In this document: positions 2,351-58,646 of the stretch, one piece after another
Layout of the letters: every line of letters starts with the position of its first letter
How positions within the stretch are numbered: position 1 is the stretch's first letter
Assembly: GCA_030583845.1 (NCBI GenBank)
Contig: CP129478.1
Span: forward strand, 651,686-715,685
Length of the DNA: 64,000 bases
Direction: 5' to 3'
Source of the DNA: Candidatus Dojkabacteria bacterium
GTDB lineage: Bacteria; Patescibacteriota; Dojkabacteria; SC72; JAHDCA01
Program-made: the position numbers and the translations under genes
Notes under the pieces: model-generated
Seen by the model: the letters and a program-made list of their open reading frames with translations, nothing else
Told to the model about the DNA's origin: nothing
Databases searched by the model: none

Positions 2351-2783
2351 GTATCACAGACAGTCGCCCGACCATCCCGCTAACTTATAGTGCGAACCGC
2401 ACTATAAGTTAGCGGGATGGTCGGGAGGAAAGTCCGGACTTCATGTCGATCCCGAACATGTCGGGATGAGAGCCGGCAAGAGCTCTCCGAAGCTTCGTAA
2501 GAAGCGAGGGAGGGAAAGGAGCCGGGGGGAAGTGATTTCTCGGAGAAAAGGGCAACAGAAAGCAAACCGCCCTTCTTCGCTCGCAAGAGCTTTGAAGGGT
2601 AAGGGTGAAAAGGTATTCTCCTGCGTCCTTAGGGACTACGGAGAATGAGGCCTTCGGGCTTCAGTGTAAGAGACTACCGGCCTGAGCAGCAATGCTCCGG
2701 CGCGGGTAACCCCCTCTCGAAGCAACCCAAACGGGGCATAGATAGATGGCTGTCTAAACAGAATCCGGCTTATGTGATACTTG
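2349..2783 (+). ncRNA. rnpB: RNase P RNA (bacterial type A) with an unusually long perfect P3 hairpin
   Basis: Conserved blocks are visible: P1 5' strand CAAGTATCAC (2349-2358) pairs with GTGATACTTG (2774-2783). CAGACAGTCGCC is identical to the E. coli P2 region. Also present are GGAGGAAAGTCCGGAC (P4 5' strand), ACAGAAAGCAAACCGCC, GGGTAAGGGTGAAAAGGT and ACAGAATCCGGCTTAT (P4 3' strand). P3 is a perfect 27-bp-stem palindrome at 2367-2425. Confidence 0.85.
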
Positions 2784-2832: not shown

Positions 2833-3771
2833 CTATAAGTCTTGCCCGCGCACAAACTCTGCGGCGGACATACGGTTCTTCCCCTCGAGCTGAAGCTCAA
2901 GAATCTGTATCAATTTCAATGGATTTTTTGTCCCTACAAAAAGCCTCTCTTCCTTGGTGTAGAAATCTCCAGCTTCAATCTGCAGCTGTCCGTCGCTATT
3001 ATCAATCACCTCTACTTTGAAAATTTTCATCCGTCGTCCTTCTGTGAAGAAACTCCACGCCACCGGCCACGGCTGCATCGCGCGCACCATCTTCTCGATA
3101 TAGTCAGGCTCATGTTGGCTCCAATTTATCTGAGCTGCATCCTTCGAAATCTCTTTCTGCCAACAGAAGGTTGCTTTAGATTCATCTTGTGGGATCGGTT
3201 TAATCTCTCCTGCCACCCATTTCATTAAAATATCGCCGATTACCTTACTGCTTTTCTCTACAAGCCTCTCGCGCAAGGTTTGATTTGTATCCGTAGGCAA
3301 TATATCTTCTTCAAATGTCTCGAGCACCTCGCCGGCGTCGAGCTCTTTCACCATGCGCACAATTGATATGCCTGTTTTAGAATCGCCCTCTAAGATTGCT
3401 TTCTGAATCGGGATTGCTCCGCGATATTTTGGCAAGAGTGAGAAGTGGATATTAATAGCTTTATACTTAGGTGCCTCCAAGAAGAATTCAGGAATTATCT
3501 CGCCAAATGATTTGCACACAAGTAGCTCAGGCTTGAATGTATCGAGCGCCTCTTGGTATTTTGCCTCATCTTTCTCTGTATGGAATACGGGGATGTTGTT
3601 GTCTAAGCAGTACTGCTTAACCTCGGTTGGTAAGATCTCCTGCTTGCGGCCTGTGGGCTTGTCGGGCTGGGTGATTACGCCAACAATTTCAAAACGACTA
3701 TCTTGGTGCAATGTCTTTAATGTTGTGAGTGCTTCCCAATTGGAGCCGAGAAAGAGTGTCTTGATTGCCAT
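2833..3771 (-). CDS. fmt: methionyl-tRNA formyltransferase
   Basis: 312 aa. Formyltransferase N-domain with HFSLLPKYRG motif. Overall Fmt architecture with a C-terminal domain. Confidence 0.9.
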   Translation of the reverse strand: MAIKTLFLGSNWEALTTLKTLHQDSRFEIVGVITQPDKPTGRKQEILPTEVKQYCLDNNIPVFHTEKDEAKYQEALDTFKPELLVCKSFGEIIPEFFLEAPKYKAINIHFSLLPKYRGAIPIQKAILEGDSKTGISIVRMVKELDAGEVLETFEEDILPTDTNQTLRERLVEKSSKVIGDILMKWVAGEIKPIPQDESKATFCWQKEISKDAAQINWSQHEPDYIEKMVRAMQPWPVAWSFFTEGRRMKIFKVEVIDNSDGQLQIEAGDFYTKEERLFVGTKNPLKLIQILELQLEGKNRMSAAEFVRGQDL

Positions 3772-4918: not shown

Positions 4919-4967
4919 CCATGTGGCAGCCCTAAGTGGGTTAGACCCGCTCTGCTCAGAGTGGAAG

Positions 4968-4993
4968 TGCTCAGACCCGATCGGGTCTGAGCA
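4968..4993. repeat. 26-bp perfect palindrome TGCTCAGACCCGATCGGGTCTGAGCA (copy 1 of 4) with adjacent module TTAGACCCGCTCTGCTCAGAG (4941-4961)
   Basis: Read directly. Lies in the queA-tgt intergenic spacer. The same core recurs at 24162-24187, 57550-57591 and 58467-58498. Confidence 0.8.
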
Positions 4994-4995
4994 TT

Positions 4996-6108
4996 TTGCA
5001 AAAAACGCGGTATAATAACACCATGCACGATCTAAATAACATTAACTTCTTGCCAGATGCTACACGCGGAGCTGTCCGTTCAATCACCACGCAGCAGCTA
5101 AAATCCACAAACACAAAAGGCATCGTAGTAAACACCCTCCATCTACTTATCTCGCCCGGCCCTGAGCGGATCAAAGAGCTAGGTGGCATCCACAAATTTA
5201 TGAGCTGGGATGGACTTACCCTCTCGGATTCTGGAGGCTTTCAGGTATTCTCACTTCTACACTCAGGTAAGTGGGAAGGAAAGATCGACGAGAATGGAGC
5301 TATATTTAAGTCTCCACGAGATGGCAAAACACATGTGCTGACACCTGAGAAGTCGATAGATATTCAGATGATGCTGGGTACAGATATACTGGTGGTGCTT
5401 GATGATTGCAGGAAGGCAGTAACAACACGCGAGGAAGCTGAAGAGTCAGTAAATCGAACAATTGAATGGGCAAAGAGATGCAAAGAGCATTACCTAACCA
5501 GCTACAGCGACGCTGAAAGAGAGGGAAAGATGCTCTCAGCAGTAGTTCAAGGGGCGAATTTCAGCGACCTAAGAATCAAGTGTGCGGAAGCGCTGACAGA
5601 GATCGGCTTTGATGGCTACAATTTTGGTGGCTATGTACTGGATGATGAAGGGAAGCTTGTGCTAGACCAGATGAAGACAGTGGTGGACAACACTCCGGCC
5701 GATAAGTTCAAGTATGCGATGGGGGTAGGGAAGCCCGATGATATTTTCTACTCGGCTCAGGTAGGATACAAGCTTTTTGATACAGTGCTACCCACAAGGA
5801 ATGCAAGGCATGGCACACTTTACTCGGCGACCGCTACAAATGGCGAGATGCGCATACGAAATGCAGAATTCGCAACCGACACCGGTCCTATCGATGAGAG
5901 CTGCGACTGCGAGGCATGCACAAACCACTCAAAGGCCTATATTCATCAGATGATAAAGGTGGGCGAGATGACAGGAATGACTCTAGCAACAATCCACAAC
6001 ATCAGGTTTTATCAGCGGTTAATTGAGAAGATGAACGAGCTAGGTGAAGATGGTATAACATCTATAGAGTATAAAGATATTCTAAAACAATTAGCCGACG
6101 CATCATGA
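4996..6108 (+). CDS. tgt: queuine tRNA-ribosyltransferase (tRNA-guanine transglycosylase)
   Basis: 370 aa. Zinc site CDCEACTNHSKAYIHQM and MGVGKPDDIFYSAQVGYKLFDTVLPTRNARHG block. Confidence 0.9.
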   Translation: MQKTRYNNTMHDLNNINFLPDATRGAVRSITTQQLKSTNTKGIVVNTLHLLISPGPERIKELGGIHKFMSWDGLTLSDSGGFQVFSLLHSGKWEGKIDENGAIFKSPRDGKTHVLTPEKSIDIQMMLGTDILVVLDDCRKAVTTREEAEESVNRTIEWAKRCKEHYLTSYSDAEREGKMLSAVVQGANFSDLRIKCAEALTEIGFDGYNFGGYVLDDEGKLVLDQMKTVVDNTPADKFKYAMGVGKPDDIFYSAQVGYKLFDTVLPTRNARHGTLYSATATNGEMRIRNAEFATDTGPIDESCDCEACTNHSKAYIHQMIKVGEMTGMTLATIHNIRFYQRLIEKMNELGEDGITSIEYKDILKQLADAS

Positions 6109-11025: not shown

Positions 11026-12915
11026 ATGCCAGCCGAAAAACATGTAGATGCAATATTCACTAATTATCTAGAATCAGTATCACGCAAGTTCAAAAATGAG
11101 AGAACTTCTGAGATGGGCTATAGAGCTGAATTTGAGCAGCTATTAAAGAACGTATTTGAAGAGATAGGCGTCAAGGATATAGGTCATGATGAAAAGTCAT
11201 CTAAAGGGAATAAACCTGATTTTATAGTCTACAGCAAAGCTAGGGTCCCATTGCTTTACATTGAGGTGAAAGACATTGGGGTGTCGCTGGATAAGATAGA
11301 GCAATCTGAGCAAATTGCTAGATACTTCGGTTACGACAATCTTGTGCTGACAGATTATCTTGAGTTCCGGTTTTATAGGAATGGTCATAGGTATCAGGAT
11401 CCGGTAAAAATCGCCGTGTATGACAAGAAGGGACGCACGATTGAACCACAATCTCATAATTACCAAAATCTCGCGAAAACTCTACTCGATTTTACCAAAT
11501 CTCATAAAGAACCTATCAAATCAGGACTCCACCTTGCGAAGGTAATGGGCGGTAAAGCCAGAAGAATAAGAGACAATATTCTTGAGATTATTGAGCATCC
11601 GGACAAAGAGTCGGCTGATCTTGAGAAGGTATTCGATACAATCAAGACCTTGTTGGTACACGATCTCAAAATAGACGACTTCGCAGACATGTATGCCCAG
11701 ACTCTTGTGTATGGACTCTTCGTCGCAAGATTCTATGATGAATCAGAAGATAGCTTTAGCCGCGAGGAGGCTCGTGAGCTTATCCCTGCTTCTAATCCAT
11801 TTTTGAGGCACTTTTTCGATCATATTGCTGGACCAAATTTTAATGTTCGCCTTAAATACATCGTAGACGAGCTTTGTGAAGTGCTTAGCCATGCTGATAT
11901 TGAAAAACTGATGGATGATTATTACGGTAAGCAGTCAAAAGATCGTCGGAAGGCTCCTGATCCGGTTATCCATTTTTATGAAGACTTTCTCAAAGAGTAT
12001 GATCCGGTGTTGCGAAAAAAGATGGGAGCTTATTACACGCCTGTGCCAGTTGTGGATTTCATCGTACGATCTGTCGACCATATATTGAAAAAGGATTTCA
12101 GCCTACCGAAAGGATTGTCCGATACCAGTAAAGACCAGAAGGGTAATCACATTGTGCAGGTACTAGATCCAGCGGTAGGTACAGGAACTTTCTTCAGTGC
12201 TGTAATTAGGCATATATACGCACCATTCGCCAAGAATGAGAACCAAGGAGCTTGGCATAAGTACGTACACAACGAGCTTCTTCCAAGGCTTCATGGGTTT
12301 GAACTGATGATGGCTCCATACACGATAGCGCATCTACGTTTAACTGTCGCATTTAAGAAAACGGATTTTATCCACTTCAACAAAAGGTTGGGTATTTATC
12401 TCACGAACTCGCTTGATGACCTACAGGGTCAGGATGGACTATTCGCTTTCGGGTTTGCGGATAGTATTGCTCAGGAATCGGAAGCAGCAAGGAAGATAAA
12501 GCATGATACACCAGTTATGGTTGTTCTTGGCAATCCTCCCTACAGTGTCAGCTCTCAGAATAAAGGAGAATGGATCGAGAGTGAGGTGAAAGAGTACAAG
12601 AAAGATCTTAATGAAAGAAATATTCAACCGCTCTCTGATGATTACATTAAATTTATCCGTTTCGCAGAGCAACAGATCGAGAAAAATGGCTCAGGTATTG
12701 TGGCAATGATAACCAATAACTCTTTCCTCGATGGAATCATCCACAGGCAGATGCGTAAGCATCTCTTAGAAACGTTTGATGACATTTATGTAGTCGATTT
12801 GCATGGTAATTCGAAAAAGAAGGAGATGACTCCAGATGGTGGTAAAGATGAGAATGTATTTGACATTCAGCAAGGTGTCTCGATTAACTTTTTTGTTAAG
12901 AAGCCTCAAATATGA
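11026..12915 (+). CDS. MmeI-like type IIG restriction-modification enzyme, N-terminal fragment (PD-ExK nuclease + gamma-class N6-adenine methyltransferase)
   Basis: 629 aa. N-terminal PDFIVYSKARVPLLYIEVKD matches the MmeI-family D...E-x-K endonuclease core. MTase motif I VLDPAVGTGTFF and motif IV LGNPPYSV. The DLHGNSKKKE...DENVFDIQQGVSINFFVKK block, which normally leads into a specificity domain, is followed by a stop. Confidence 0.7.
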   Translation: MPAEKHVDAIFTNYLESVSRKFKNERTSEMGYRAEFEQLLKNVFEEIGVKDIGHDEKSSKGNKPDFIVYSKARVPLLYIEVKDIGVSLDKIEQSEQIARYFGYDNLVLTDYLEFRFYRNGHRYQDPVKIAVYDKKGRTIEPQSHNYQNLAKTLLDFTKSHKEPIKSGLHLAKVMGGKARRIRDNILEIIEHPDKESADLEKVFDTIKTLLVHDLKIDDFADMYAQTLVYGLFVARFYDESEDSFSREEARELIPASNPFLRHFFDHIAGPNFNVRLKYIVDELCEVLSHADIEKLMDDYYGKQSKDRRKAPDPVIHFYEDFLKEYDPVLRKKMGAYYTPVPVVDFIVRSVDHILKKDFSLPKGLSDTSKDQKGNHIVQVLDPAVGTGTFFSAVIRHIYAPFAKNENQGAWHKYVHNELLPRLHGFELMMAPYTIAHLRLTVAFKKTDFIHFNKRLGIYLTNSLDDLQGQDGLFAFGFADSIAQESEAARKIKHDTPVMVVLGNPPYSVSSQNKGEWIESEVKEYKKDLNERNIQPLSDDYIKFIRFAEQQIEKNGSGIVAMITNNSFLDGIIHRQMRKHLLETFDDIYVVDLHGNSKKKEMTPDGGKDENVFDIQQGVSINFFVKKPQI

Positions 12916-13442
12916 GCAAGAAAGGAAACTACGCTTTCATAGACAGTCAGAACTTGAACCTAGGTATGCGATCCTTGGGCTGGAGGATAGACTACCAGAA
13001 ATTTAGACTGTACCTGAAAAATAAATATAATGTGCAAAAGGCCTATCTATTTATTGGATTGGTTCCAAACAACCAACAATTGTATAGTGATCTACAATCT
13101 GCTGGCTTCATACTGGTATTTAAGCCGACAGTGAGATATTTTGTCCGTGGTAAGGAGACCGTCAAAGGTAATGTAGACGCAGAATTGGTTCTGCATGCTT
13201 CTGCAATCGAGTACAGCAAGTATGACAAGGCAATTATAGTAAGCGGTGATGGTGATTTTTCGTGTTTAATTCAGTTTCTGGTGAAAAGGAAAAAATTGTT
13301 GGCACTGTTAACTCCTAACTCCAAGTACTCGCAGCTACTAAAGCCGTACTCGCCATATATTACGAGAATTGATCAAATTATTAAGTCTTTTGGGTATAGG
13401 AAGAAAAGAAAAACCAGCATCAGCGTTCGGTCGAAACCTTAG
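12912..13442 (+). CDS. NYN/LabA-like (PIN-fold) nuclease-domain protein inserted between the two RM fragments
   Basis: 176 aa. AFIDSQNL, KGNVDAELVLHA and IIVSGDGDF motifs of the NYN domain. The ATG overlaps the TGA stop of the upstream fragment (ATGA). Confidence 0.7.
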   Translation: MSKKGNYAFIDSQNLNLGMRSLGWRIDYQKFRLYLKNKYNVQKAYLFIGLVPNNQQLYSDLQSAGFILVFKPTVRYFVRGKETVKGNVDAELVLHASAIEYSKYDKAIIVSGDGDFSCLIQFLVKRKKLLALLTPNSKYSQLLKPYSPYITRIDQIIKSFGYRKKRKTSISVRSKP

Positions 13443-13501
13443 GCCTATCTGGTTATGGTGATAGGAAATTCTATCACAAATAGATAAGTAGATCAATCAA
13501 C

Positions 13502-14719
13502 ATGAATAACAAAAACACTAAAAAGAAATTAGCAAGAGTTCATCATATTGACTTGTTTGGAAAGCGTGAGGATAAGTTTAAATTCCTAGAGGAGAACTCT
13601 GTGGCGAGTATTAGTTGGCAAAAGCTTAATTACATTCAGCCTTCGTTTTATTTTGTGCCAAAGGACTTTGGATCAATTGTGGAGTATGAAAGCGGGTTTA
13701 GGGTAGATGAGTTACTTACATTTAATGCAAGTGGGACAAAGTTTCGAAAAGATAACCTATTGGTAAGAAATCACTTCACACGATACGATGTAGAAAAAAT
13801 GTTAGAGGATATAAACACACTCTCTAAAGAAGATTTTCTTAATAAATATAACTTTAATGAAACTAAAGATTGGGTATTAAAGGAAAAGGTGCAGTATTTC
13901 GAGACCGATTACAATAATATTAGGAAGGTTCTTTATTCACCATTCGATACAAGATTCACGTATTATCCTGTTGAGAGAATCTCGAACATTATTCCAAGAG
14001 GTGATTCAAGGAAGCAAATGATGAAAAATTTCTTTGAACCAAACGTGGGACTTCTACTAATGCGGAAGCTTGTAAATACACAAAATTTTTCGACAATCAG
14101 TGTGTGTAATTGTATGGTCGATATTAACTATTACGGTTTTCAAACATATGTATTCCCGCTCTATCTGTACGCAGCCGATGGCTCAAAAACTTCAAATGTA
14201 AACGATGAAATCGCCGACAAGATAAAGCAATTAAATGGCACATTCACACCAGAAGAACTATTTGACTACATATACGCAGTGCTACACTCCCCAAACTACC
14301 GCGAAAAGTATAAGGAATTCCTCAAAATAGATTTCCCAAGAGTGCCATACCCGAAGGATCGCGAAACATTCGACAAATTTGTAAAACTGGGAAAACAGCT
14401 TAGAGAGCTCCACCTTATGGAATCTCCAAAGATCTCAGAGGCCAGTTTACCATTCCCCATAGAGGGTAGCGATTTAGTTGAGAGAGTTAAATATGAGGAC
14501 AGTAAAGTATTTATAAACAGCACTCAATATTTTGACAATGTACCTGAGATCGCATGGAATTTCTATATTGGTGGGTATCAACCAGCTCAGAAGTGGCTTA
14601 AGGATCGTAAGGGTCGGGAGCTATCGTATGAAGACATGGAGCATTATCAGAGGATTATTTTTGTACTTTTGGAGACTGATAAACTGATGAAAGAAATCGA
14701 TACTGTGATAAAGTTTTAG
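13502..14719 (+). CDS. type-ISP/MmeI-family C-terminal specificity (target-recognition) domain, C-terminal fragment of the split RM gene
   Basis: 405 aa. Opens with KKLARVHHIDLFGKREDKFKFLEENS, which normally follows the FFVKK block in single-chain enzymes. C-terminal WNFYIGGYQPAQKWLKDRKGRELSYEDMEHYQRII is the hallmark of the ISP/PglX C-terminal specificity domain. Confidence 0.65.
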   Translation: MNNKNTKKKLARVHHIDLFGKREDKFKFLEENSVASISWQKLNYIQPSFYFVPKDFGSIVEYESGFRVDELLTFNASGTKFRKDNLLVRNHFTRYDVEKMLEDINTLSKEDFLNKYNFNETKDWVLKEKVQYFETDYNNIRKVLYSPFDTRFTYYPVERISNIIPRGDSRKQMMKNFFEPNVGLLLMRKLVNTQNFSTISVCNCMVDINYYGFQTYVFPLYLYAADGSKTSNVNDEIADKIKQLNGTFTPEELFDYIYAVLHSPNYREKYKEFLKIDFPRVPYPKDRETFDKFVKLGKQLRELHLMESPKISEASLPFPIEGSDLVERVKYEDSKVFINSTQYFDNVPEIAWNFYIGGYQPAQKWLKDRKGRELSYEDMEHYQRIIFVLLETDKLMKEIDTVIKF

Positions 14720-17198: not shown

Positions 17199-17912
17199 TT
17201 GGAGAAATCAATAGTAATAAAACTAGGTGGCTCGCTGATCTACGACCTCAACTTGGGCATAAACAAGGAGCTGATGAAGAAGCTTCATAGCTGGTATGTC
17301 GCGCACGGTCCTGAGTACAATTTCATCGTGTTTGTCGTCGGTGGAGGGAAGATTTCGAGGCATCTGGTGAGTCAGGTTGAAGATCTCGCCAAAGATGAGC
17401 TGTCCAAGCACCGGATCGGTATGGAAGCAACACGGACAAACGCAGCAATACTCGCATCTGTTTTAGGCAGCAGTGCAGGTGAGATACTGCTGCCGACTAG
17501 TTTTGGAGAGCTGCTTGAATTTATTGTTACCAATAAGCGAGGCACGATTATTACTGGTGGTTTCAAAGCTGGATGGAGCTCGGATATGAATGCCGCAATA
17601 GTTGCAGATATAATCGGGCAGAATAAAGTTTACAAGCTCTCAGATATTGACCATGTGTACACCGCAGATCCGAAGAGTAACCCAGACGCCACGCCTATAC
17701 AGGATCTAACATGGAGTGACTATTTCAAGATGTTCAACCTCTCAATGGAAAATGCTCACGATGCGCCAGGACTGCATGTGCCGGTTGGTACTCATGCGGC
17801 ACAGTTCTCTGTGAGGAAAGGTTTATCTTTCTTCGTATCAGGTGGAAAAAATCTTGAGAGCCAGGCTGATCTGGCTGCGGTATTTGAATCGGGGACATAT
17901 CTCCACCCGTAA
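17199..17912 (+). CDS. pyrH: amino-acid-kinase family protein, uridylate kinase-like
   Basis: 237 aa. IKLGGS and VVGGG glycine loops. C-terminal GGFKAGWSSDMNAAIVADIIG...DHVYTADPKSNPDA resembles the PyrH TTD...DGVYDADPKKNPDA block. Confidence 0.6.
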   Translation: MEKSIVIKLGGSLIYDLNLGINKELMKKLHSWYVAHGPEYNFIVFVVGGGKISRHLVSQVEDLAKDELSKHRIGMEATRTNAAILASVLGSSAGEILLPTSFGELLEFIVTNKRGTIITGGFKAGWSSDMNAAIVADIIGQNKVYKLSDIDHVYTADPKSNPDATPIQDLTWSDYFKMFNLSMENAHDAPGLHVPVGTHAAQFSVRKGLSFFVSGGKNLESQADLAAVFESGTYLHP

Positions 17913-18033
17913 CCCCGCTAACTTATAGTGCGGTAGTTGTTAAATCTGTGGAGTAAGATTTTCAAAAGATGTAGCGTTACTTAGATAAGTGCATTCTCGT
18001 CGCTATCGGAAAACGCACTATAAGTTAGCGGGG
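17913..18033. repeat. 121-bp MITE-like element with 20-bp terminal inverted repeats CCCCGCTAACTTATAGTGCG / CGCACTATAAGTTAGCGGGG, identical to the rnpB P3 stem sequence
   Basis: Read directly. Fills the whole spacer between the pyrH-like stop (17910-17912) and the greA stop (18034-18036), where the two genes converge. Confidence 0.7.
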
Positions 18034-18498
18034 TTACTTTACGCTCAGGATCTTGTATTCAAGCTTCTTTCGAGGAAGCTCTACGACTACTTTTGCGCCA
18101 GCCTTCTTGCCGGCTATTGCCATGCCGATAGGTGACTTGAGGGTAATTTTGTTGTTAAGCGGGTCAGACTCAGACTCACCAACTATGAAGTAAACAACCT
18201 TGCTGCCATCAACATCCACCTCTACTTCTGCTCCAAGCTCTACGACGCCACTATCTCCGCCTTTTGAATCATTAACAATATCTGCGGTATCAAGTATTAC
18301 CTGTATATCCGCAATTCGTTTCTCATTCACCTGGTACTGCTCCAATGAAAGCGTATAGCCTTCATTCTCAGATACATCGCCTCGTGCACGCATCTCTTCT
18401 ACAATGCCCTTGAGCTCGTCTCTTTTGACAGTAAGTTTCTGCAGGTCCTTTTTCAATTTTTCGTATCCCTTCTGTGTCAGTTGAACTTTCTCGTTCAT
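18034..18498 (-). CDS. greA: transcription elongation factor GreA
   Basis: 154 aa. Canonical coiled-coil tip RARGDVSENEGY and C-terminal FKBP-like domain. Confidence 0.9.
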   Translation of the reverse strand: MNEKVQLTQKGYEKLKKDLQKLTVKRDELKGIVEEMRARGDVSENEGYTLSLEQYQVNEKRIADIQVILDTADIVNDSKGGDSGVVELGAEVEVDVDGSKVVYFIVGESESDPLNNKITLKSPIGMAIAGKKAGAKVVVELPRKKLEYKILSVK

Positions 18499-19647: not shown

Positions 19648-20124
19648 TTGAAAGGACTGTACGTGGGACGCAAGAAATATTTCTTGACCAAGCAAAAGGT
19701 CAAGGAGCTCAAAAAAGAGCTGAGTATACTCGAAACCAAAGGTAGGCAGGAGATCGCAGATAGCTTAAACTGGCTGCGAGACTTGCCGAATAGCCAGGAG
19801 GACGACGAATTCTCAGATGTGTTGGATAATAAAAGATACCTCGAGAAAAGGATCGTAGAGATCAAAGATATTCTCTCCAATTTTGAGATTGTGAAGCATT
19901 CGCTCAAGGATACTGTTTCCGTCGGAACCACCGTAAAGGTGGGTTTTGAGGGATATGTGGAGAAATTCATGATAGTCTCAGCTTTGGAGGCAGATCCGCT
20001 TAATAATAAGATATCCGACGAATCTCCTGTTGGCAGGTCGCTTGTGGGTGCGAAAGTCGGTGACAAAGTCTTGGTGGATATGGGGGGCATCAAGAAAGCA
20101 TTCAGAATACTAGGTATTGAGTAA
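19648..20124 (+). CDS. GreA/GreB-family paralog with non-canonical coiled-coil tip
   Basis: 158 aa (TTG start; GTG at 19663 is an alternative). C-terminal Gre FKBP-like domain (SALEADPLNNKISDESPVGRSLVGAKVGDKV). The tip reads LPNSQEDDEFSD instead of the DxSENxEY motif. Confidence 0.7.
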   Translation: MKGLYVGRKKYFLTKQKVKELKKELSILETKGRQEIADSLNWLRDLPNSQEDDEFSDVLDNKRYLEKRIVEIKDILSNFEIVKHSLKDTVSVGTTVKVGFEGYVEKFMIVSALEADPLNNKISDESPVGRSLVGAKVGDKVLVDMGGIKKAFRILGIE

Positions 20125-24136: not shown

Positions 24137-24161
24137 ACGTGTATATCGGTCAGACCCCAAG

Positions 24162-24187
24162 TGCTCAGACCCGATCGGGTCTGAGCA
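24162..24187. repeat. 26-bp palindrome TGCTCAGACCCGATCGGGTCTGAGCA (copy 2) with adjacent module CTCTGAGCAGAGTGGGTCTAA (24194-24214)
   Basis: Read directly. Inverted orientation relative to copy 1. Lies in the divergent promoter region between the exonuclease and HD genes. Confidence 0.8.
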
Positions 24188-24284
24188 ATTCTACTCTGAG
24201 CAGAGTGGGTCTAAACAACCTAGGTCTAACCTCTTTATTAATTAAGTAGCTATGGGATATAATAGCACAGATCATTAAAATCGC

Positions 24285-42912: not shown

Positions 42913-43356
42913 ATGGTTTCAGCAAAGAAATATGAAGGTTTCACATTGATTGAAATCCTCGTAGTCGTAGGTCTTATCGCGATCTTGGCAGCGATCACAT
43001 TCATCGCTATCAACCCTGGTAAGAACTTCGCAGATACACGAAATACGACAAGGCAGTCTGATGCCACAGCAATCCTAAACGCTGTAACTCAGTATACATC
43101 TGAGGAAGGTAATCAGCTTTCTGACCTTGGTACAATTCCTCTTTGTACTGCAACACCTTCACCTATTGGAGATGGTACCGGTAACGTAGACCTCGCAGCT
43201 ACATTGGTTGATGAGTACATCGTAGGTATTCCTGTAGACCCACAGACAGGTGATGATGCAGATACTGGTTACACAATCTGCCAGACAACTGGTGGTCGTG
43301 TACAGATCGATGCTCCTGATGCTGAGAACGGAAAAGTAATCAGCGTAAAGAGATAA
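42913..43356 (+). CDS. type IV pilin (major pilin candidate)
   Basis: 147 aa. Prepilin leader KKYEG|FTLIEILVVVGLIAILAA, C-terminal Cys pair. A strong terminator follows. Confidence 0.85.
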   Translation: MVSAKKYEGFTLIEILVVVGLIAILAAITFIAINPGKNFADTRNTTRQSDATAILNAVTQYTSEEGNQLSDLGTIPLCTATPSPIGDGTGNVDLAATLVDEYIVGIPVDPQTGDDADTGYTICQTTGGRVQIDAPDAENGKVISVKR

Positions 43357-43381
43357 AAGGTTTACATTCGTAAGCTAATAA

Positions 43382-43428
43382 CCCCGCCCTCCTTCGCTCT
43401 ACGAGCTACGGAGGGCGGGTTCTATTTA
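43382..43428 (+). terminator. Rho-independent terminator after the pilin gene
   Basis: Stem CCCGCCCTCC(43382-43391)...GGAGGGCGGG(43409-43418) then TTCTATTT. Confidence 0.7.
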
Positions 43429-43487
43429 ATTGGCGGATCTCTTTATAGGACAAGCACTAATCAACTTGAGTTATGGTACACTGAAGC

Positions 43488-45140
43488 ATGGCTAATACCG
43501 ATCAGAGCCAAACACAACCTGCCCAAACGGCTGTTCCTCAGCCGCAAACCGATCCAGCAGCTACTCAAGCCGATCAAGTCGTTGATCAAAGCGCAGTTGC
43601 TACTTCAGTCGTTCCAGAGCCCTCAGCTGCTACATTGCCATCGACCGATACGAGCGAAGAAGAAGCCGTTATCAGTGCCGAAGTAGCTGCACAGCCAGTG
43701 GCCGAACTCTCAGCGCCTGCAGAACCGATCGCTATAGCAGCAGATCCAGCCCCGGATCAGGCGGCAGCACCTGCGGCATCAACTCCTCCAGCCCCGACAC
43801 CAGAGCCACAGCCAACTGATGAGCCTGCGGCAACGACAACCGATACAGCAGCCCAAGCTACTCAAGCCACTCCTGCATCTGGACAAGCCCCAATGCCACC
43901 AAGCGACAATCGTAAGTATGACGAAGTTATCGATCACCTCGTCGATACAGATGGTGGATTAGATGTAGGAACGCTCTTAGAGCAGATCGTTAAGAAAGCT
44001 CTCGAAGAAAAATCATCGGACATCCATATCGAGCCGCGTGAAGATGATGTTGTAGTTCGATTCCGCGTTGATGGTCTGCTTAGAGAGGTAATGACGATTG
44101 ATAAAAAGCTAGAGCAGGCATTGGTGTTCAAGATTAAAGTGGCATCGAGGCTGAGAACCGACGAGCATTTCGCACCTCAAGACGGTAAGATCCGCTTCCT
44201 TTTTGAGGATCTGAAGGTCGACACCCGTGTATCTATTCTTCCTACAACAAAAGGCGAGAAGGTTGTGTTTCGTCTGCTTACCCAGCAAGGGAAGGCGTTC
44301 GGACTTGAGGATCTTGGCGTCGTTGGCCGGGATCTTGAGCTGGTTCAGAAAAGCTTTACCAAGCCTTACGGCATGATCATCGCGGCTGGGCCTACCGGAT
44401 CAGGCAAGACGACCACACTGTATAGCATCTTGAAGATCCTCAACGATCCGGAGATCAATATCACAACGATTGAAGATCCGGTTGAGTATGACATCGATGG
44501 AATCAACCATGTGCAGGTCAACAGCAAGGCAAATATGACTTTCGCCACGGGATTGAGGTCTCTCCTGAGGCAAGACCCTGATGTGCTTATGATCGGTGAG
44601 ATCCGTGACGGTGAGACAGCCCGTATTGCGATAAACTCAGCTATGACAGGTCACTTAGTGCTCTCTACGATTCACACCAATGACGCTATCACCACAGTAC
44701 CGCGTCTGGTGGATATGGGAATTGAGCCATATCTGGTGGCATCAACAATAAATGTTGTGATTGCGCAAAGGTTGGCTCGTAAGTTGTGCGAATCATGTAG
44801 AGCGCAGACAACTATGTCTCCAGAAGAGCATGCCGAGTTGGCCAAGATCCGACCCGATATTGCCGCATTGATAAAGCCCGGTGAGCCTCATTTCAAGGCG
44901 GGGTCGTGCGCTGCGTGCGGTGGAGTAGGCTATAAAGGCCGTATCGGTCTGTACGAAATATTGGAAATGAATAAGCCAGTGCGTGACCAGGTGAACAGCG
45001 GCGCGTCGGCCGATGAGATATTCAAAACCGCGAGAGAATCAGGCTTGACGTTGATTGTAGAAGATGGGATAAAGAAGGTGAAACTCGGGATTATTAGCAT
45101 TGATGAGTTGCAACGTGTGACCGCAATACGAGAGGAGTAG
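43488..45140 (+). CDS. pilB: type IV pilus assembly ATPase PilB (GspE family) with ~135-aa Pro/Ala/Thr-rich disordered N-terminal extension
   Basis: 550 aa. Walker A GPTGSGKTTT, Asp box, His box, tetracysteine CESC...CAAC. Confidence 0.9.
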   Translation: MANTDQSQTQPAQTAVPQPQTDPAATQADQVVDQSAVATSVVPEPSAATLPSTDTSEEEAVISAEVAAQPVAELSAPAEPIAIAADPAPDQAAAPAASTPPAPTPEPQPTDEPAATTTDTAAQATQATPASGQAPMPPSDNRKYDEVIDHLVDTDGGLDVGTLLEQIVKKALEEKSSDIHIEPREDDVVVRFRVDGLLREVMTIDKKLEQALVFKIKVASRLRTDEHFAPQDGKIRFLFEDLKVDTRVSILPTTKGEKVVFRLLTQQGKAFGLEDLGVVGRDLELVQKSFTKPYGMIIAAGPTGSGKTTTLYSILKILNDPEINITTIEDPVEYDIDGINHVQVNSKANMTFATGLRSLLRQDPDVLMIGEIRDGETARIAINSAMTGHLVLSTIHTNDAITTVPRLVDMGIEPYLVASTINVVIAQRLARKLCESCRAQTTMSPEEHAELAKIRPDIAALIKPGEPHFKAGSCAACGGVGYKGRIGLYEILEMNKPVRDQVNSGASADEIFKTARESGLTLIVEDGIKKVKLGIISIDELQRVTAIREE

Positions 45141-45214
45141 TGACAGCTCTCCGAATATTCGATAGTTGAATCCAAAGGCTTTCCCGAGCAGATTAAAATC
45201 ACTGTCCATTCCGA

Positions 45215-46351
45215 ATGCCTGAAAAGGTAGCTCAAAGTGCAAATCCGAAAAGTAGCAATGCGCCAAGCACTCAGGAAAAGAAACAAGGAAAACCATCGAC
45301 TAAGCCGATCGGTAGGGTAAATCCTCTTGATGTAGCGCTTTCAATTAGACATATCTCGATCATGCTCAAGTCTGGTATGTCGCTTTCAGAAGCACTCAAT
45401 GTTGTTGCGTCACAGACCGCCAATCCGAAGCTTAAGCGTGCTTATGAGCTCGTCCTTGCCGACGTACAGGGTGGTATGACCGTCGCAGATGCGATGAAGA
45501 AGCACCCAAAAGCCTTTTCACACATCGTCGTGTCGGTAATTAGCGTAGGCGAAGAGGGTGGTACATTGGAGCAGAACCTGATCTTCCTCGCAGACTTCTT
45601 GAAGAAAAATCACGACCTTAACAAGAAGGTTAAAGGCGCTCTAGTGTATCCGGTCATCGTTTTCGCCATTACTGTGATAGAGATGGTAGGTGTGATGTTT
45701 TTCATCTTGCCTAAGCTTGAAGAGCTATTTGAGTCATTCACCGGAATCCCGCCATTTACACTCTTTATCCTAAACATGTCGAAGTTTATTCGAGAAAATA
45801 TCTTCCTGATTATAGGGGTAACTGTTGTTGTCGTAGTGGCCAGTGTGCTTCTGCTTAGAACCAAGGCGGGAATCCGCTTCAAGGATCGATTTATGTTGAA
45901 ATTTCCAATTATCAAGGAGCTCAACAAGAAGCATATAATCACCAACTTCTCGCGTACCCTAGGCATCTTGCTCCACAGCGGTATACCTATCTCTTCGGCT
46001 TTGGAGATTGCTTCAAGGACTGTCGAGAATAGCGTTTACACAGGGATGCTTGTGCAGGTACACCAGTCGGTGAAGTCTGGAAACACTCTCTCCTCCTCTT
46101 TAGAAAAATTCCCAGTATATTTCCCGAGTACTTTCACTAAGATGATCCAGATAGGTGAGGAGACCGGCACCCTTGAAGACAACTTGAATTATCTTTACGA
46201 CTTCTATGCTGAAGAGGTGACTGACATGAGCAACAACCTTGCAACCCTGCTTGAGCCGCTTCTCCTAGTATTTATCGGGATAATGATCGGCGTGCTTGCA
46301 ATCATGATTGTAGGTCCGATCTATCAGCTGACGGGAAGTATCAATAATTAA
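45215..46351 (+). CDS. pilC: type IV pilus platform protein PilC (GspF family)
   Basis: 378 aa. Two GspF repeats, 3 TM. Confidence 0.85.
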   Translation: MPEKVAQSANPKSSNAPSTQEKKQGKPSTKPIGRVNPLDVALSIRHISIMLKSGMSLSEALNVVASQTANPKLKRAYELVLADVQGGMTVADAMKKHPKAFSHIVVSVISVGEEGGTLEQNLIFLADFLKKNHDLNKKVKGALVYPVIVFAITVIEMVGVMFFILPKLEELFESFTGIPPFTLFILNMSKFIRENIFLIIGVTVVVVVASVLLLRTKAGIRFKDRFMLKFPIIKELNKKHIITNFSRTLGILLHSGIPISSALEIASRTVENSVYTGMLVQVHQSVKSGNTLSSSLEKFPVYFPSTFTKMIQIGEETGTLEDNLNYLYDFYAEEVTDMSNNLATLLEPLLLVFIGIMIGVLAIMIVGPIYQLTGSINN

Positions 46352-46401
46352 TGATTTTTTGATGTCTGTGGGGATCACGCATAAATTTATAAGGCAGATC
46401 C

Positions 46402-46854
46402 ATGGGGAGCAAGTATAAGGGATTCACACTGATTGAGATAGTAGTAGTAATCGGGATAATGATCGCAGCATTTGCTGTCGTTTTTCCACTAACTGTCAGT
46501 CAGATTCGTGAGAATAAGCTGATAAGCACAGCCGAAGAGGTCGCTGGTGCCATTTTCGAAGCCCAGCAGTATGCATATAATAAGAAGAATGGGCTTGGCT
46601 ACGGGATTAAGTTTAATTCGGACTCGTACGAGTATATATCTGGAGCAAACTATAATGAAGCAGTTGCAGACGACCTCTTTACAATCGAATCAGGTGTTGA
46701 TGTTACCGAATCGCTTTTCGGTACTAAAACAGATATCTTCTTCCAGCCCGGCTCTGTGAGGCCCGACGATCCAGGAGAGATAACAATCTCAGATGGTGCG
46801 CTGACAGTCACCGTAAGCATAAACTCAGAGGGTGCAATATTTATAAATGACTAG
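46402..46854 (+). CDS. prepilin-type pseudopilin / minor pilin
   Basis: 150 aa. N-terminal YKGFTLIEIVVVIGIMIAA. Confidence 0.7.
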   Translation: MGSKYKGFTLIEIVVVIGIMIAAFAVVFPLTVSQIRENKLISTAEEVAGAIFEAQQYAYNKKNGLGYGIKFNSDSYEYISGANYNEAVADDLFTIESGVDVTESLFGTKTDIFFQPGSVRPDDPGEITISDGALTVTVSINSEGAIFIND

Positions 46855-48835
46855 ACTCAGCAAAGCCAAAAATCGAGAGAATTATCGATATAGCGGCCTT
46901 AGCCTTGTTGAGATCCTCATCGTAGTCGGAATTCTTGGTACGATAATTGGTGTGATGTCATTCTTCTCAATCGACACCATGCGCTTCCACCAAAATAGCC
47001 GCAATAAGACCTTAGCCGCCGTGAAGATTGAGGAGCTAACCAGAGCTTTGGAGACAGTAAAAGGCAGCAACTGGTCGCAGCTCTACTCGTCGCTTGACGA
47101 TGGGGCAATGCATCTGCAATTCAGCGGCAACCAGTACTCGATAGTCGCTGGCGCCTCTACCGACGACAATATGAACCTAAGCTTTAGCACAGAACGTGTT
47201 TATAGAGACGCTTCGCGCAATATTGTCAGCAGCGGAGGCACTGAAGATATACACACGCTGAAGCTGAATGTGCAAGTCACATGGAATGATTTCCTTGGCG
47301 CATCACAGAACCTCAACACTACTATGTATGTTAATAACTGGGAAATTCAGAAATTTGACGACACGACCGAAGCGAATTTTGATGCTGGCACACTCTCAGA
47401 TACGTACGTCGAAAATGACGAGGGCGGAGAAATCTGGCTTGGCACAGTCTTTTATCCCGATTGGTGCAATCCTTCGCTCTCTATCAACCAGTACGATATC
47501 CCGGGATCTGCTACTGCGACTACAGTATTTGCCCGCCCTGGGTATGCCTATCTCGGCACAGCAGGCTCTTCTTCTGGTATATCTGTCACCAAGCTATCGA
47601 TAAATGGTGTCGATCCACCAGTGGTAGCGGTTGATCATGAGTATGACAACTATCTGGTTAATAATATTTTCGTATTAGGCAACTATGCCTACCTTGCAAC
47701 CACCGACGATAACAAAGAGGTAGTGATACTCGATATCTCGGTCACACCTTTTGTCGAAGTTGGGCATTATAATGGCTCGGGCACAAACAACGGATATAGC
47801 GTCTGGGTAGATGGTAGAGGGGTTGGTTATCTTGCTCAAGGCCGTAAGGTAGACACATTTGATGTTGGCTATACTGCGGGCAATCCTGGAACCGCCGCAG
47901 CCAACACAGGTGCAAGGACAAGTCTAGATGAGCTAAACCTGGTGTGGCTATTTGGGACTGTGAGCCAGGTAATCGTTATCGGTGACTATTTGTATGCCTC
48001 TCTCAACAATGACTGGTACGAGCTAGGTATTGTAAACGTCGCGGCTCCAAATAACATCTCAGTAACTTCTCAAACCACTGTAAATAACCAACAGGTGCAA
48101 GATATCTATATGTCTGCTGACGGCAGTCGTGCCTATTTTGGTACTAATAGCTCCTCTAGCGAGCGTGAGTTCTTCATACTCGACACGACTACGAAAACTG
48201 GTTCTCGACCCATTGTGGGTAGCTATGACACGAACGGTATGTCTGTGCGTGGTCTTGCACTACTCGAGGAGGATGACCGAGTTGTGCTCGTCGGAACAAG
48301 CGCAGAAGAGTATCAGGGGCTTGATATTAGCAATGAGAACTCACCAACAAAGTGTGGCGGTATGCAGATAAACAATGGAATCTACGATATCGATACAGTG
48401 GTCGACGGAGATGGAAATGCTTTCTCATACCTGATGACAGGTGACACTACAAGCGAGTTTAAGATCTTGCGTGGCGGTCCCGGCGGTGGTGGTGCAAACG
48501 GATATGGCTATGTGCCCGAAGGGTACTTTACTTCGAGAGTCTTCGATACAACTAGCGCAACTCCGACCTACTACAATTTCGCATGGAACGGTGACCTACC
48601 CACTAATACAAATGTGCAGGTTCAGCTGCGGAGCGGTGATACAGCTAACTTGAGCGGACAGCCTTGGCGTGGCCCAGATGGCACCGCTTCGACATACTTC
48701 ACAGGATTCACTACAAATACGCTGCCATCACAGCTTCAGAATCATCGATATATTCAGTACAGATTACGCTTAACTAGTGGAGATATCGCTGAATCTCCAG
48801 TATTTAAGGATATTTCACTTTTTTATTCGGAATAA
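46847..48835 (+). CDS. giant pseudopilin with prepilin N-terminus and beta-propeller-like (LVIVD-repeat-like) domain, candidate pilus-tip adhesin
   Basis: 662 aa. N-terminal YSGLSLVEILIVVGILG. Repeated blocks GNYAYLATTDDNKEVVILDIS, IGDYLYASLNNDWYELGIVNV and ADGSRAYFGTN. Confidence 0.6.
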   Translation: MTRLSKAKNRENYRYSGLSLVEILIVVGILGTIIGVMSFFSIDTMRFHQNSRNKTLAAVKIEELTRALETVKGSNWSQLYSSLDDGAMHLQFSGNQYSIVAGASTDDNMNLSFSTERVYRDASRNIVSSGGTEDIHTLKLNVQVTWNDFLGASQNLNTTMYVNNWEIQKFDDTTEANFDAGTLSDTYVENDEGGEIWLGTVFYPDWCNPSLSINQYDIPGSATATTVFARPGYAYLGTAGSSSGISVTKLSINGVDPPVVAVDHEYDNYLVNNIFVLGNYAYLATTDDNKEVVILDISVTPFVEVGHYNGSGTNNGYSVWVDGRGVGYLAQGRKVDTFDVGYTAGNPGTAAANTGARTSLDELNLVWLFGTVSQVIVIGDYLYASLNNDWYELGIVNVAAPNNISVTSQTTVNNQQVQDIYMSADGSRAYFGTNSSSSEREFFILDTTTKTGSRPIVGSYDTNGMSVRGLALLEEDDRVVLVGTSAEEYQGLDISNENSPTKCGGMQINNGIYDIDTVVDGDGNAFSYLMTGDTTSEFKILRGGPGGGGANGYGYVPEGYFTSRVFDTTSATPTYYNFAWNGDLPTNTNVQVQLRSGDTANLSGQPWRGPDGTASTYFTGFTTNTLPSQLQNHRYIQYRLRLTSGDIAESPVFKDISLFYSE

Positions 48836-49333
48836 ATGAGCAAAGCAATCAAAAAATACAGCGGGATCACATTAATTGAGGTGCTGGTATATATGGCACT
48901 GTTCGGGGTAGTGTTTGCGCTAGTAGTGGGTGTGCTTATCCAGACACGCGAGCAGAATAGACGAGCACGTGACTCGATAAAGATCGAGCAGAACATGATG
49001 TTTATCGATGAGCATATAAACATGGTTTTTAACGATGTCGACTCTATAAATGCAGCTGGCTCTGTTTTCGATAATGACACCGGGACTTTGCAACTAACTT
49101 TGAACGATGCCTCGACTGTCGAATATGAACGAGTGGGTGGTACACTCAATTTCACAAGGGATTCAACAACATCCCCGCTAAGCAATAATGCCGTGACGGT
49201 ATCACAGTTTAGGATCGAACAGGTGCTAGATGAGGATAGCAATCTTATAGGAGTGCGTGTGAGCTGCGAGGTAAATTCTCAGTTTGATTCAGATAACTCG
49301 AAATCTTGGAGTAATCTTTATTACATTCAATAA
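48836..49333 (+). CDS. prepilin-type pseudopilin / minor pilin
   Basis: 165 aa. N-terminal YSGITLIEVLVYMALFGVV. Start abuts the upstream stop. Confidence 0.65.
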   Translation: MSKAIKKYSGITLIEVLVYMALFGVVFALVVGVLIQTREQNRRARDSIKIEQNMMFIDEHINMVFNDVDSINAAGSVFDNDTGTLQLTLNDASTVEYERVGGTLNFTRDSTTSPLSNNAVTVSQFRIEQVLDEDSNLIGVRVSCEVNSQFDSDNSKSWSNLYYIQ

Positions 49334-49335
49334 TT

Positions 49336-49725
49336 ATGGCTAATGCTCAATCAACAGCAAAATATGAAGGAGCCATCGCCCTAACAACAATGCTCGTAGT
49401 TATGGCAGTTCTTACTGCTTCTGGAATCGCACTGGTCTTAACCAGCATCAACCTGCGGAATTCAACTCGAGCTTATTACAATGCTAAGGTTGCCGCAGCA
49501 TATGTCACTAACTGCCTTGAGGAGAGCGTAGATCGATTAAAAATTGATAAATCATACACCGGCACAATGGAGATAACTTTGGATGGAGGGGACTGCACTG
49601 TAGTCGTTAGCAATGCCGCACAGCAGGACATTAAAGTGATCGATGTTACTAGCACAGCAGACCAATACGAGGTAGATAGGCAGTTTAGACTTGATACCTC
49701 AGATTATCCATACACATTGGAGTGA
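49336..49725 (+). CDS. PilX-like minor pilin candidate
   Basis: 129 aa. Hydrophobic N-terminal helix without a canonical G|FTLIE leader. Confidence 0.4.
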   Translation: MANAQSTAKYEGAIALTTMLVVMAVLTASGIALVLTSINLRNSTRAYYNAKVAAAYVTNCLEESVDRLKIDKSYTGTMEITLDGGDCTVVVSNAAQQDIKVIDVTSTADQYEVDRQFRLDTSDYPYTLE

Positions 49726-57517: not shown

Positions 57518-57549
57518 TTTGTGTTGGTTTAATAACTTATTCGACTCCG

Positions 57550-57591
57550 ACCTTAAGTGCTCAGACCCGATCGGGTCTGAGCACTTAAGGT
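57550..57591. repeat. 42-bp perfect palindrome ACCTTAAGTGCTCAGACCCGATCGGGTCTGAGCACTTAAGGT (copy 3 of the 24-bp core)
   Basis: Read directly. Lies between the HAD-hydrolase stop and the RuBisCO start (both minus strand). Confidence 0.8.
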
Positions 57592-57626
57592 GCGACCCGG
57601 TTGGGTTAGCCCACTAGTAGGCTGAC

Positions 57627-58361: not shown

Positions 58362-58466
58362 CTCTCTATATTATCAGCTTTCTGCGAACTCGCCCAGTAT
58401 AGGGCAGGGGTAGTGAGAGTTAATGTGGTGATTTTGAAAATTATGCTGTACTGAAAGCGTTTATAA

Positions 58467-58498
58467 AATTGCTCAGACCCGATCGGGTCTGAGCAATT
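58467..58498. repeat. 32-bp palindrome AATTGCTCAGACCCGATCGGGTCTGAGCAATT (copy 4)
   Basis: Read directly. Lies in the divergent region between the HAD gene start and the dsbA-like gene. Confidence 0.8.
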
Positions 58499-58646
58499 CG
58501 GGTCTGACCTCTGCTGGGCTGCCCGCTTAAGAAAGATTTAAGAATCGCCAGCCCCTAACAAGCAAAAAGTGGCGCGGCAAAATTTTATCTGATACACTCA
58601 TCCATGAATCATTGCTCAGATTTAATATTTTTTATCTATTTTTTAC

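Follow-up and report, generated by a model that had tools for sequence, protein, structure and literature searches.

The RNase P RNA gene (rnpB) of a Candidatus Dojkabacteria bacterium has a P3 helix that is an inverted doublet of a box of about 20 nucleotides (nt), with the core CCGCTAACYTATAG, and this box comes from a dispersed family of hairpin-forming repeats. The gene lies in a stretch of 64,000 nt of contig CP129478.1, referred to here as the window, whose Fmt and adjacent proteins match NCBI entries named Candidatus Dojkabacteria (WS6, Candidate Phyla Radiation (CPR)). Our comparison with relatives reveals that two peripheral helices of the ribozyme, P3 and P12, have repeatedly been taken by the box pair. 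We hold with moderate confidence that the pair is a selfish or neutral hairpin repeat that is tolerated in peripheral ribozyme helices.

A repeat doublet forms the P3 helix

The features of the window that concern the box are the following.

2348-2787, + strand: rnpB, bacterial type A RNase P RNA, 440 nt (cmscan, RF00010)
2367-2425, + strand: P3 helix, a perfect 59-nt palindrome with arms 2367-2394 and 2398-2425 and loop 2395-2397 (AAC)
2368-2373, + strand: base of P3, 6 bp, CCGACC pairing with GGTCGG at 2419-2424 (rnpB gene alignment)
2375-2394, + strand: left repeat box TCCCGCTAACTTATAGTGCG, 5' strand of P3
2398-2417, - strand: right repeat box, an inverted copy, 3' strand of P3
17913-18033, no strand: 121-nt element with inverted boxes 17913-17932 and 18014-18033 and an interior of 81 nt

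The gene can be classified as type A because its full-length match to the covariance model RF00010 (129.1 bits, E = 3e-39, model positions 1-367) exceeds the gathering score of 100 bits. Both P4 strands, GGAGGAAAGUCCGG and ACAGAAnCCGGCUUA, are found and aligned, and the palindrome, which is flanked by the P2 strand CAGACAGUCGC and the P4 strand GGAGGAAAGUCCGG, fills the P3 columns. In the model the outer CCCGACCAU and AUGGUCGGG are P3 pairs, and the remaining palindrome is an insertion within the P3 loop. A TATAAT hexamer at 2335-2340 lies 7 nt 5' of rnpB, a distance that is kept in the relatives.

The original prediction, made from the letters of the window, had placed a perfect palindrome at 2367-2425 within P3. 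The complementarity of the arms (28 nt each, 100%, around the 3-nt loop AAC) and the cmscan placement bear this out, and the alignment to RF00010 confirms the boundaries of P3. The predicted stem of 27 bp with a 4-nt loop has to be corrected to 28 bp and 3 nt, since the transcription had one extra C. The hairpin is retained in the predicted minimum free energy fold of the whole RNA, and as single-stranded DNA the palindrome folds with -35.9 kcal/mol (z = -14.9). The 6-bp CCGACC/GGTCGG base lies outside the repeat box and is absent in a related lineage (lineage B, below), in which the box pair directly adjoins P2 and P4.

Perfect palindromes are a known class of artefact, and a Logan contig of run DRR779146 (L012; such handles denote fetched loci) breaks off within this one, as might be expected of a chimeric inverted duplication from sequencing or assembly. 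The deposited 1.04-Mb contig and the Logan assemblies of runs DRR779145 and SRR24881069, however, carry the identical palindrome, and identity in independent assemblies argues that it is not an assembly artefact. Its exact position at P3, with correct flanking P2 and P4, and the related box pairs at the same helix in independent lineages likewise leave such an origin with a negligible probability.

The box recurs in a 121-nt intergenic element

The 18-mer CCGCTAACTTATAGTGCG, searched with up to three mismatches, occurs four times in the window (2377, 2398, 17915 and 18014), and all four arms are exact. Chance is ruled out as the source of the repeat, since only 0.06 occurrences are expected and none of 100 shuffles reached four. 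The second pair of occurrences forms the ends of the 121-nt element, which are perfect 20-nt inverted boxes, CCCCGCTAACTTATAGTGCG. These inverted ends extend to 24 perfect nt (17909-17932 and 18014-18037), the outer 4 nt being the two stop codons plus one base. Identity between the P3 arms and the element ends is 100% over 19-21 nt, in agreement with the 19-nt core that had been predicted to be common to both.

An AA_kinase-family gene (17199-17912, + strand) and greA (18034-18498, - strand) converge on the 121-nt element, which takes up the entire space between their stop codons. As RNA the element folds with -57.7 kcal/mol (z = -7.5), and it is also carried by the same-strain assemblies L016 and L017. 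In the closest relatives the kinase-greA spacer is either 12 nt long (L020, from the run with an Fmt 83% identical to that of the window) or consists of 52 unrelated nt (L018, L019), so that the element is an insertion. The part of this genome that was read comprises 72.8 kb of 1.04 Mb (the window and 8.8 kb added by L027), and its box copies are confined to these two elements, the rnpB P3 and the element at 17.9 kb.

A single box is a weak, imperfect hairpin (CGC-TA-ACT-TAT-AGT-GCG) that folds with -2.1 to -3.8 kcal/mol as single-stranded DNA (z about -2.5); solo copies have additional flanking stems. Two inverted boxes, in turn, make a long hairpin, as does a doublet of repetitive extragenic palindromes (REP/REPIN) or a very small miniature inverted-repeat transposable element (MITE).

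Several other identities of the box were considered and rejected. Neither the box nor the 121-nt element has a match to a known RNA family: at gathering thresholds the Rfam matches in the window are confined to rnpB and two tRNAs, and L003-L009 have none. The box contains TATAGT/TATAAG; a role as promoter or terminator was rejected, as consensus scans were empty at both loci and the distance to downstream genes is inconsistent. A phage origin received no support from three scans of viral contigs (one with a 17-mer and two with paired-box patterns), all of which gave nothing.

Filled and empty sites in relatives

In addition to the two window doublets, doublets are found in P3 and P12 of L014, at 2457, 9795 and 20148 of L021, and in P3 and P12 of L022, and solo boxes at 3756 of L021, at 4471 of L018 and in L001-L006. 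Four box loci fall within 21 kb of L021. The copies described next, in L021 and L018, are those of lineage B. One of the L021 doublets (2457-2499) sits between the HU and CAP-domain genes and is orthologous to L018 at about 584, where one arm has degraded. The S5-L15 spacer is 77 nt long with a decayed box pair in L021, as against 2 nt in the strain of the window (L027). Intergenic orthologous copies of the box decay. The solo box at 3756 of L021 lies between ymdB and rny, within the loop of a CATAC/GTATG stem. In L018 two boxes (4471 and 4617) precede tRNA-Glu, and 3 nt separate one of these from the mature 5' end, whereas no box is present upstream of the tRNA-Glu of the window. Orthologous sites that are filled in one genome and empty in another therefore include the kinase-greA spacer, the S5-L15 spacer, the region upstream of tRNA-Glu, and P12 of rnpB itself.

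We also note a 14-mer, CCGCTAACCTATAG, that corresponds to the lineage B box variant and lies antisense within queA (L014 2095-2108 and L021 7532-7545), where it encodes ...GYRLAAG...; queA of the window has no match to it. This 14-mer could be a chance match or coding sequence derived from the box.

P3 and P12 across Dojkabacteria rnpB genes

We compared rnpB, which lies beside fmt, in seven Dojkabacteria lineages. The closest relative, from SRR23332755 (Fmt 83%), is outside this comparison, as its contig stops 41 nt past fmt. The two helices are as follows.

L024: P3 of 21 nt, ordinary hairpin without box; P12 short, native
L025: P3 of 23 nt, ordinary hairpin without box; P12 short, native
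L015: P3 of 30 nt, ordinary hairpin without box; P12 native
Lineage B, L014: P3 of 52 nt, wholly box pair; P12 a 43-nt near-perfect box palindrome
Lineage B, L021: P3 of 52 nt, wholly box pair; P12 native
Window: P3 of 59 nt, 6-bp non-repeat base and box doublet; P12 native
L022/L023 (GCA_054683635.1): P3 of 141 nt, diverged arms; P12 a 117-nt element

P3 thus carries a box pair in four of the seven (the window, L014, L021 and L022). The other three, all more distant Dojkabacteria, have a short ordinary P3 of 21-30 nt, a point that the original prediction had proposed to check. The number of nt between the P3 arms of the four box-bearing genes is 3, 22, 22 and about 100. In lineage B, whose Fmt is 77% identical to that of the window, P3 reads ATCCGCTAACCTATA, 22 nt and TATAGGTTAGCGGAT; here the native P3 stem has been lost and P3 is supplied by the repeat alone, which suggests that its pairing would by then be under selection. 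The arms of P3 in L022 are TCCCGCTAATCTACTCGCA and TGCGAGCAGGTTAGCGGGA. Together with the filled and empty sites, the placement of the doublet in P3 supports the predicted view that a catalytic RNA has here a structural helix composed of sequence from a repeat family.

P12 holds a box pair in two of the seven genes, L014 and L022. Although Fmt of L022 is only 65% identical to that of the window, the arm of its P12, TCCCGCTAACTTATAGTGCG, equals the box of the window over 20 nt; arm mismatches are present in both P3 and P12 of L022. The native P12 of L021 is common to the window and L015, and since L021 is a near relative of L014, the box palindrome in P12 of L014 is a recent replacement of the native helix.

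The arms of the window and of lineage B differ by a T-A versus C-G pair, a compensatory difference that would ordinarily point to selection on the RNA. The same C-G/T-A variant is seen in intergenic doublets of lineage B, so that the change may instead mark a subfamily of the repeat. Several loci of lineage B carry the box, in the two variants CTT and CCT.

The P13 region of the window rnpB (about 2606-2653) contains a further helix expansion of about 48 nt. It consists of two hairpins (ATTCTCC...GGAGAAT and GAGGCC-TTCG-GGCTTC), is also present in L021, and is absent from L014 and the short rnpB genes. The helices of rnpB are generally fluid within the Dojkabacteria clade compared.

The box in other CPR phyla

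The exact 18-mer has two genome matches and seven metagenome matches in public collections. The box TCCCGCTAACTTATAGTGCG occurs unchanged in metagenome-assembled genomes of Saccharibacteria (L001) and Nomurabacteria (L002), in each case beside tRNA genes. In the former, shorter versions of the box, TATAGCTAACTTATAGTG, stand directly 3' of both tRNA-Ala genes (1-16 and 99-117); in the latter, the box (3475-3493) overlaps the last 6 nt of tRNA-Gly(CCC). In several unassigned contigs (L003, L006) the TAA or TAG of the box itself is the stop codon of the upstream open reading frame (ORF). The base before the 18-mer is C in six of eight independent matches, and the base before that is T in five of those six; a binomial estimate puts this at about 5e-5 by chance, and the conserved C and T argue that the matches are homologous. 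Two matches that lack this upstream TC were treated as chance: L009, inside an ORF of 57% GC, and L007, where the 18-mer falls in the coding region of an IS1595 transposase (HYKLAD), so that a link to IS1595 was rejected. About half of all box copies touch rnpB or tRNA genes, and in other CPR phyla the core is linked to tRNA 3' ends. As regards an origin from a tRNA, CCCGCT of the box falls on the tRNA-Gly 3' end in L002, whereas after the tRNA-Ala genes in L001 the register is a different one.

These observations raise the question of whether the box has a function. It may be the recognition site of a conserved CPR protein (for example in stable-RNA processing, termination or a structural role) that is kept in P3 for the RNase P holoenzyme or its biogenesis, in which case the dispersed copies would be functional and not selfish. 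The exact 20-mer in Dojkabacteria, Saccharibacteria and Nomurabacteria, its conserved upstream bases, its frequent position at rnpB or tRNA genes and its persistence in P3 of four lineages are what such a site would lead one to expect. It is harder to reconcile with a recognition site that three Dojkabacteria lineages have a box-free rnpB, that both tRNA genes of the window lack the box, and that orthologous copies decay. The box also occurs in either orientation and in very different places (P3 or P12, leaders, trailers, mRNA ends and between convergent genes), and the spacing of paired boxes varies from 3 to about 100 nt. We regard a functional module of this kind as rather improbable.

The distribution of the box also bears on the direction of transfer. 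If the long P3 hairpin were ancestral, all other copies, including that at 17913-18033, could have been derived from rnpB by recombination or by retro-copying of an abundant RNA; an origin in rnpB was one of two alternatives in the original prediction. The box in P3 of four lineages and the intergenic copy of the window, with its 100% identity to the P3 arms over 19-21 nt, would be in keeping with such a source, as would the loop of the short P3 of L015, which shares TAGAGCGA with the lineage B box variant. That match is weak, however, at 8 nt, and the Saccharibacteria and Nomurabacteria boxes lie beside tRNAs with no rnpB nearby. The box is furthermore present in P12 as a recent replacement, in spacers and in the tRNA neighbourhoods of other CPR phyla, and two variants exist at several lineage B loci. 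An origin of the family in rnpB is therefore disfavoured and very unlikely. The other alternative, that a mobile element entered P3 and later collapsed to its terminal repeats, fares better: insertion is favoured, and collapse is possible, although short doublets may themselves be the basic unit.

Proposed spread and possible fate of the box pair

A selfish or neutral repeat would account for these observations in the following way. The doublet would spread at the DNA level, through some enzyme or recombination, and land or survive mostly where its hairpin is harmless, namely in short spacers at gene ends, in tRNA leaders and trailers, and at the solvent-exposed ends of P3 and P12. In type A RNase P, P3 and P12 point away from the catalytic core. 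A doublet at the tip of either helix may thus extend it outward and leave the core undisturbed. The native distal helix could then be lost, the repeat becoming the sole P3 pairing and being selected to remain paired.

Several observations weigh against this explanation. No target-site duplication is evident: the flanks of the copies (AT/AT, AA/TT, AC/GT and CA/TG) never form an unambiguous direct repeat, and being always inverted-complementary they belong to the palindrome. The copies share no interior, as local alignments are no better than those of shuffled sequences, so no defined unit moves; the exceptions are the orthologous P3 pair of L014 and L021 and one short match between P12 of L022 and L018. 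No transposase of any kind is found among the 58 ORFs of the window that were scanned, and copy density is low, with no further box in the 8.8 kb that L027 adds. For the four lineages with a box pair at P3, a single ancestral event followed by vertical descent could suffice. Finally, the box is exactly conserved over 20 nt from one CPR phylum to another and its copies cluster at stable-RNA genes, which could indicate a function at the RNA level.

The original prediction had itself named a finding that would speak against it, a 19-mer restricted to two loci together with relatives that share the same P3 as an ancestral feature. Half of this is seen, in that the box is at two loci only in the 72.8 kb and lineages B and C also have a P3 box. 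The evidence for mobility outweighs it.

A further consideration is what becomes of the hairpin after transcription. The box pair may act like an intervening sequence (IVS) that a nuclease specific for double-stranded RNA, of the RNase III type, would excise, leaving the mature RNase P RNA in two pieces (three in L014 and L022) joined via P1, P2 and P4. Copies by tRNAs and in operon spacers would then be processing sites. Such a cassette is a matter of what happens to the RNA, and the DNA could still be selfish in origin. Bacterial RNase III generally requires roughly two helical turns. The mismatch-free duplex of 28 bp is longer than this requirement, although the arms are mismatched in some rnpB copies (P3 and P12 of L022) and solo boxes are unable to form long double-stranded RNA. 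Copies of the box adjoin tRNA 5' and 3' ends, and its conserved inverted ends, unrelated interiors and sporadic distribution fit descriptions of rRNA IVSs (PMC4990558). On the other hand, no RNase III gene is seen in the window, about 6% of the genome, and cleavage is not required; other bacteria tolerate P3 extensions. Excision is thus unlikely, and we would expect the hairpin to be retained in the mature RNA. The bolder combination, in which a CPR-wide box at stable-RNA genes is recognised by a protein, its duplex is excised and the RNase P ribozyme is naturally split in two or three pieces, seems quite improbable.

Of the explanations considered, a tolerated selfish or neutral repeat remains the one we prefer, and it gives the P3 helix a wider meaning. 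Helix growth in structured RNAs, through expansion segments and extensions, usually has to be deduced from comparisons that are ancient and blurred. In this case the donor can still be recognised, as an intergenic 20-nt box that makes up P3 in the window and, in sister lineages, makes up P3 or P12 or has taken their place; the short ancestral helices are still present in close relatives. This provides a testable route of helix growth, in which a hairpin repeat enters a helix tip, the native stem is lost and the repeat becomes the helix. The box accounts for part of the unusual, hard-to-detect RNase P RNAs of the CPR, and it adds a repeat whose sequence is kept across CPR phyla and whose copies are concentrated at genes for stable RNAs. 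Were the duplex processed, these bacteria would have a naturally fragmented RNase P RNA, a counterpart of fragmented rRNA.

Other features of the window

A second, unrelated palindromic family with the core GCTCAGACCCGATCGGGTCTGAGC has four intergenic copies in the window, among them one in the queA-tgt spacer and one on each flank of a HAD hydrolase gene next to the RuBisCO gene. The family was not found in the fetched loci of relatives. Its copies are:

4956-4996, palindrome with GCTCAGACCCGATCGGGTCTGAGC core
24148-24227, palindrome with GCTCAGACCCGATCGGGTCTGAGC core
57533-57608, palindrome with GCTCAGACCCGATCGGGTCTGAGC core
58458-58520, palindrome with GCTCAGACCCGATCGGGTCTGAGC core

A patch of low GC (11026-14719, 0.39-0.42) contains three genes between the HU and CAP-domain genes, which adjoin in lineage B. 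The patch has the look of a type ISP/IIG restriction-modification gene that the NYN gene has split. The three genes are:

N6 DNA methylase/Eco57I-like, 629 aa
NYN-domain protein, 176 aa
Type ISP C-terminal specificity domain, 405 aa

Two GreA/GreB-family paralogues less than 2 kb apart (18034-18498, - strand, and 19648-20124, + strand) flank tRNA-Glu and trmD. A cluster resembling type IV pilus and type II secretion systems (42913-49725) includes a T2SSE ATPase, a T2SSF platform protein and three pilin-like genes of the N-terminal-methylation type. The RuBisCO gene (55970-57517, - strand) encodes a large-subunit homologue of 515 aa with PF00016 and PF02788; CPR bacteria, Dojkabacteria among them, are known to have RuBisCO (PMC6389311).

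Comparison with known repeat systems

In full-text searches of the literature we found no report of the box, or of palindromic repeat doublets forming P3 or P12 of rnpB. The known systems that it most resembles are MITEs, REP/REPIN doublets, rnpB tandem repeats, rRNA IVSs and the extended helices of CPR RNase P RNAs. Bacterial MITEs include, for example, Correia/NEMIS and Nezha. Like them, the 121-nt copy is small and non-coding, has perfect 20-nt terminal inverted repeats (17913-18033, with the same ends in P3) and is absent at the orthologous site of relatives, and the family as a whole shows insertion polymorphism at four sites. To this extent the term MITE-like in the original prediction was apt. 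It proves too specific in that a target-site duplication, a conserved interior and an autonomous partner with the same ends are all missing from the data read, and many box copies are bare doublets of 43-59 nt. A classical MITE, which would have a target-site duplication and a shared interior, was accordingly rejected.

The box family looks more like REP/REPIN doublets than like a MITE of a DDE transposase, a judgement that follows from the lack of a target-site duplication, the unrelated interiors and the lack of a transposase in the data read. REP/REPIN doublets are mobilised by REP-associated tyrosine transposases (RAYTs), which are of the Y1/HUH type (PMC3116915, PMC3337134). As in these systems, the unit is a short imperfect palindrome, if a weak one (box fold z about -2.5), inverted doublets form a long hairpin, and solo units appear to be remnants. 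Copies are also flush with gene ends, often between convergent genes, and a RAYT-like gene with flanking inverted repeats is present in a relative, L025. The box differs from REPINs in that its doublets have mutually unrelated spacers, its copy density is low and no cognate RAYT is found in the data read. A GTAG-type 5' tetranucleotide was not found beside the palindrome, the conserved flank being T or A followed by CC(C)GC. Box copies are furthermore located within a ribozyme gene and beside tRNAs, not solely in extragenic mRNA regions, and the box is common to several phyla, whereas vertical inheritance is described for REPIN-RAYT systems.

The gene in L025 (4941-5562; also in L026) encodes a Y1 transposase of 152 aa and fills exactly the interval from the fmt stop codon to the 3' end of rnpB. 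It matches PF01797, and its best NCBIfam match is NF047646 (REP-associated tyrosine transposase; E = 1.3e-16), at 60.8 bits, short of the curated cut-off of 80. The gene is flanked by its own 21-nt inverted repeats, AGGCCTTGCCTAYATATCCTA, which are different from the box. Systems of this kind thus exist in the phylum, beside rnpB. The gene is a lead, and not proof.

In heterocyst-forming cyanobacteria, heptanucleotide repeats known as STRRs (short tandemly repeated repetitive sequences) reportedly occur in helix P12 of rnpB, as Vioque is said to have described in 1997 in Nucleic Acids Res. These are likewise genome-dispersed repeats that lie within a peripheral rnpB helix, lengthen it and vary between relatives. 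STRRs, however, are short tandem repeats that are reported in P12 only, whereas the box occurs as inverted units of 20 nt whose palindromic doublets form or replace P3, and in relatives P12 as well.

IVSs in helices 25 and 45 of 23S rRNA are removed by RNase III, which fragments the rRNA, and those in helix 45 have been called selfish elements (PMC4990558). The box pair resembles them as a selfish-looking insertion with a long closing stem at the outer end of a peripheral helix in an essential stable RNA, sporadic among relatives. It differs in its host RNA, a ribozyme of 440 nt, and probably in its fate, IVSs being excised by RNase III and the box pair being more likely retained. IVSs, in addition, are not known as a dispersed genomic repeat family. 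For RNase P RNA of the CPR, part of the paper by Lui et al. 2021 (PMC8172020) describes large extensions or losses of peripheral helices and the need for manual refolding. In that part the extensions are not linked to a dispersed repeat family, whereas the extension described here can be traced to a specific repeat box.

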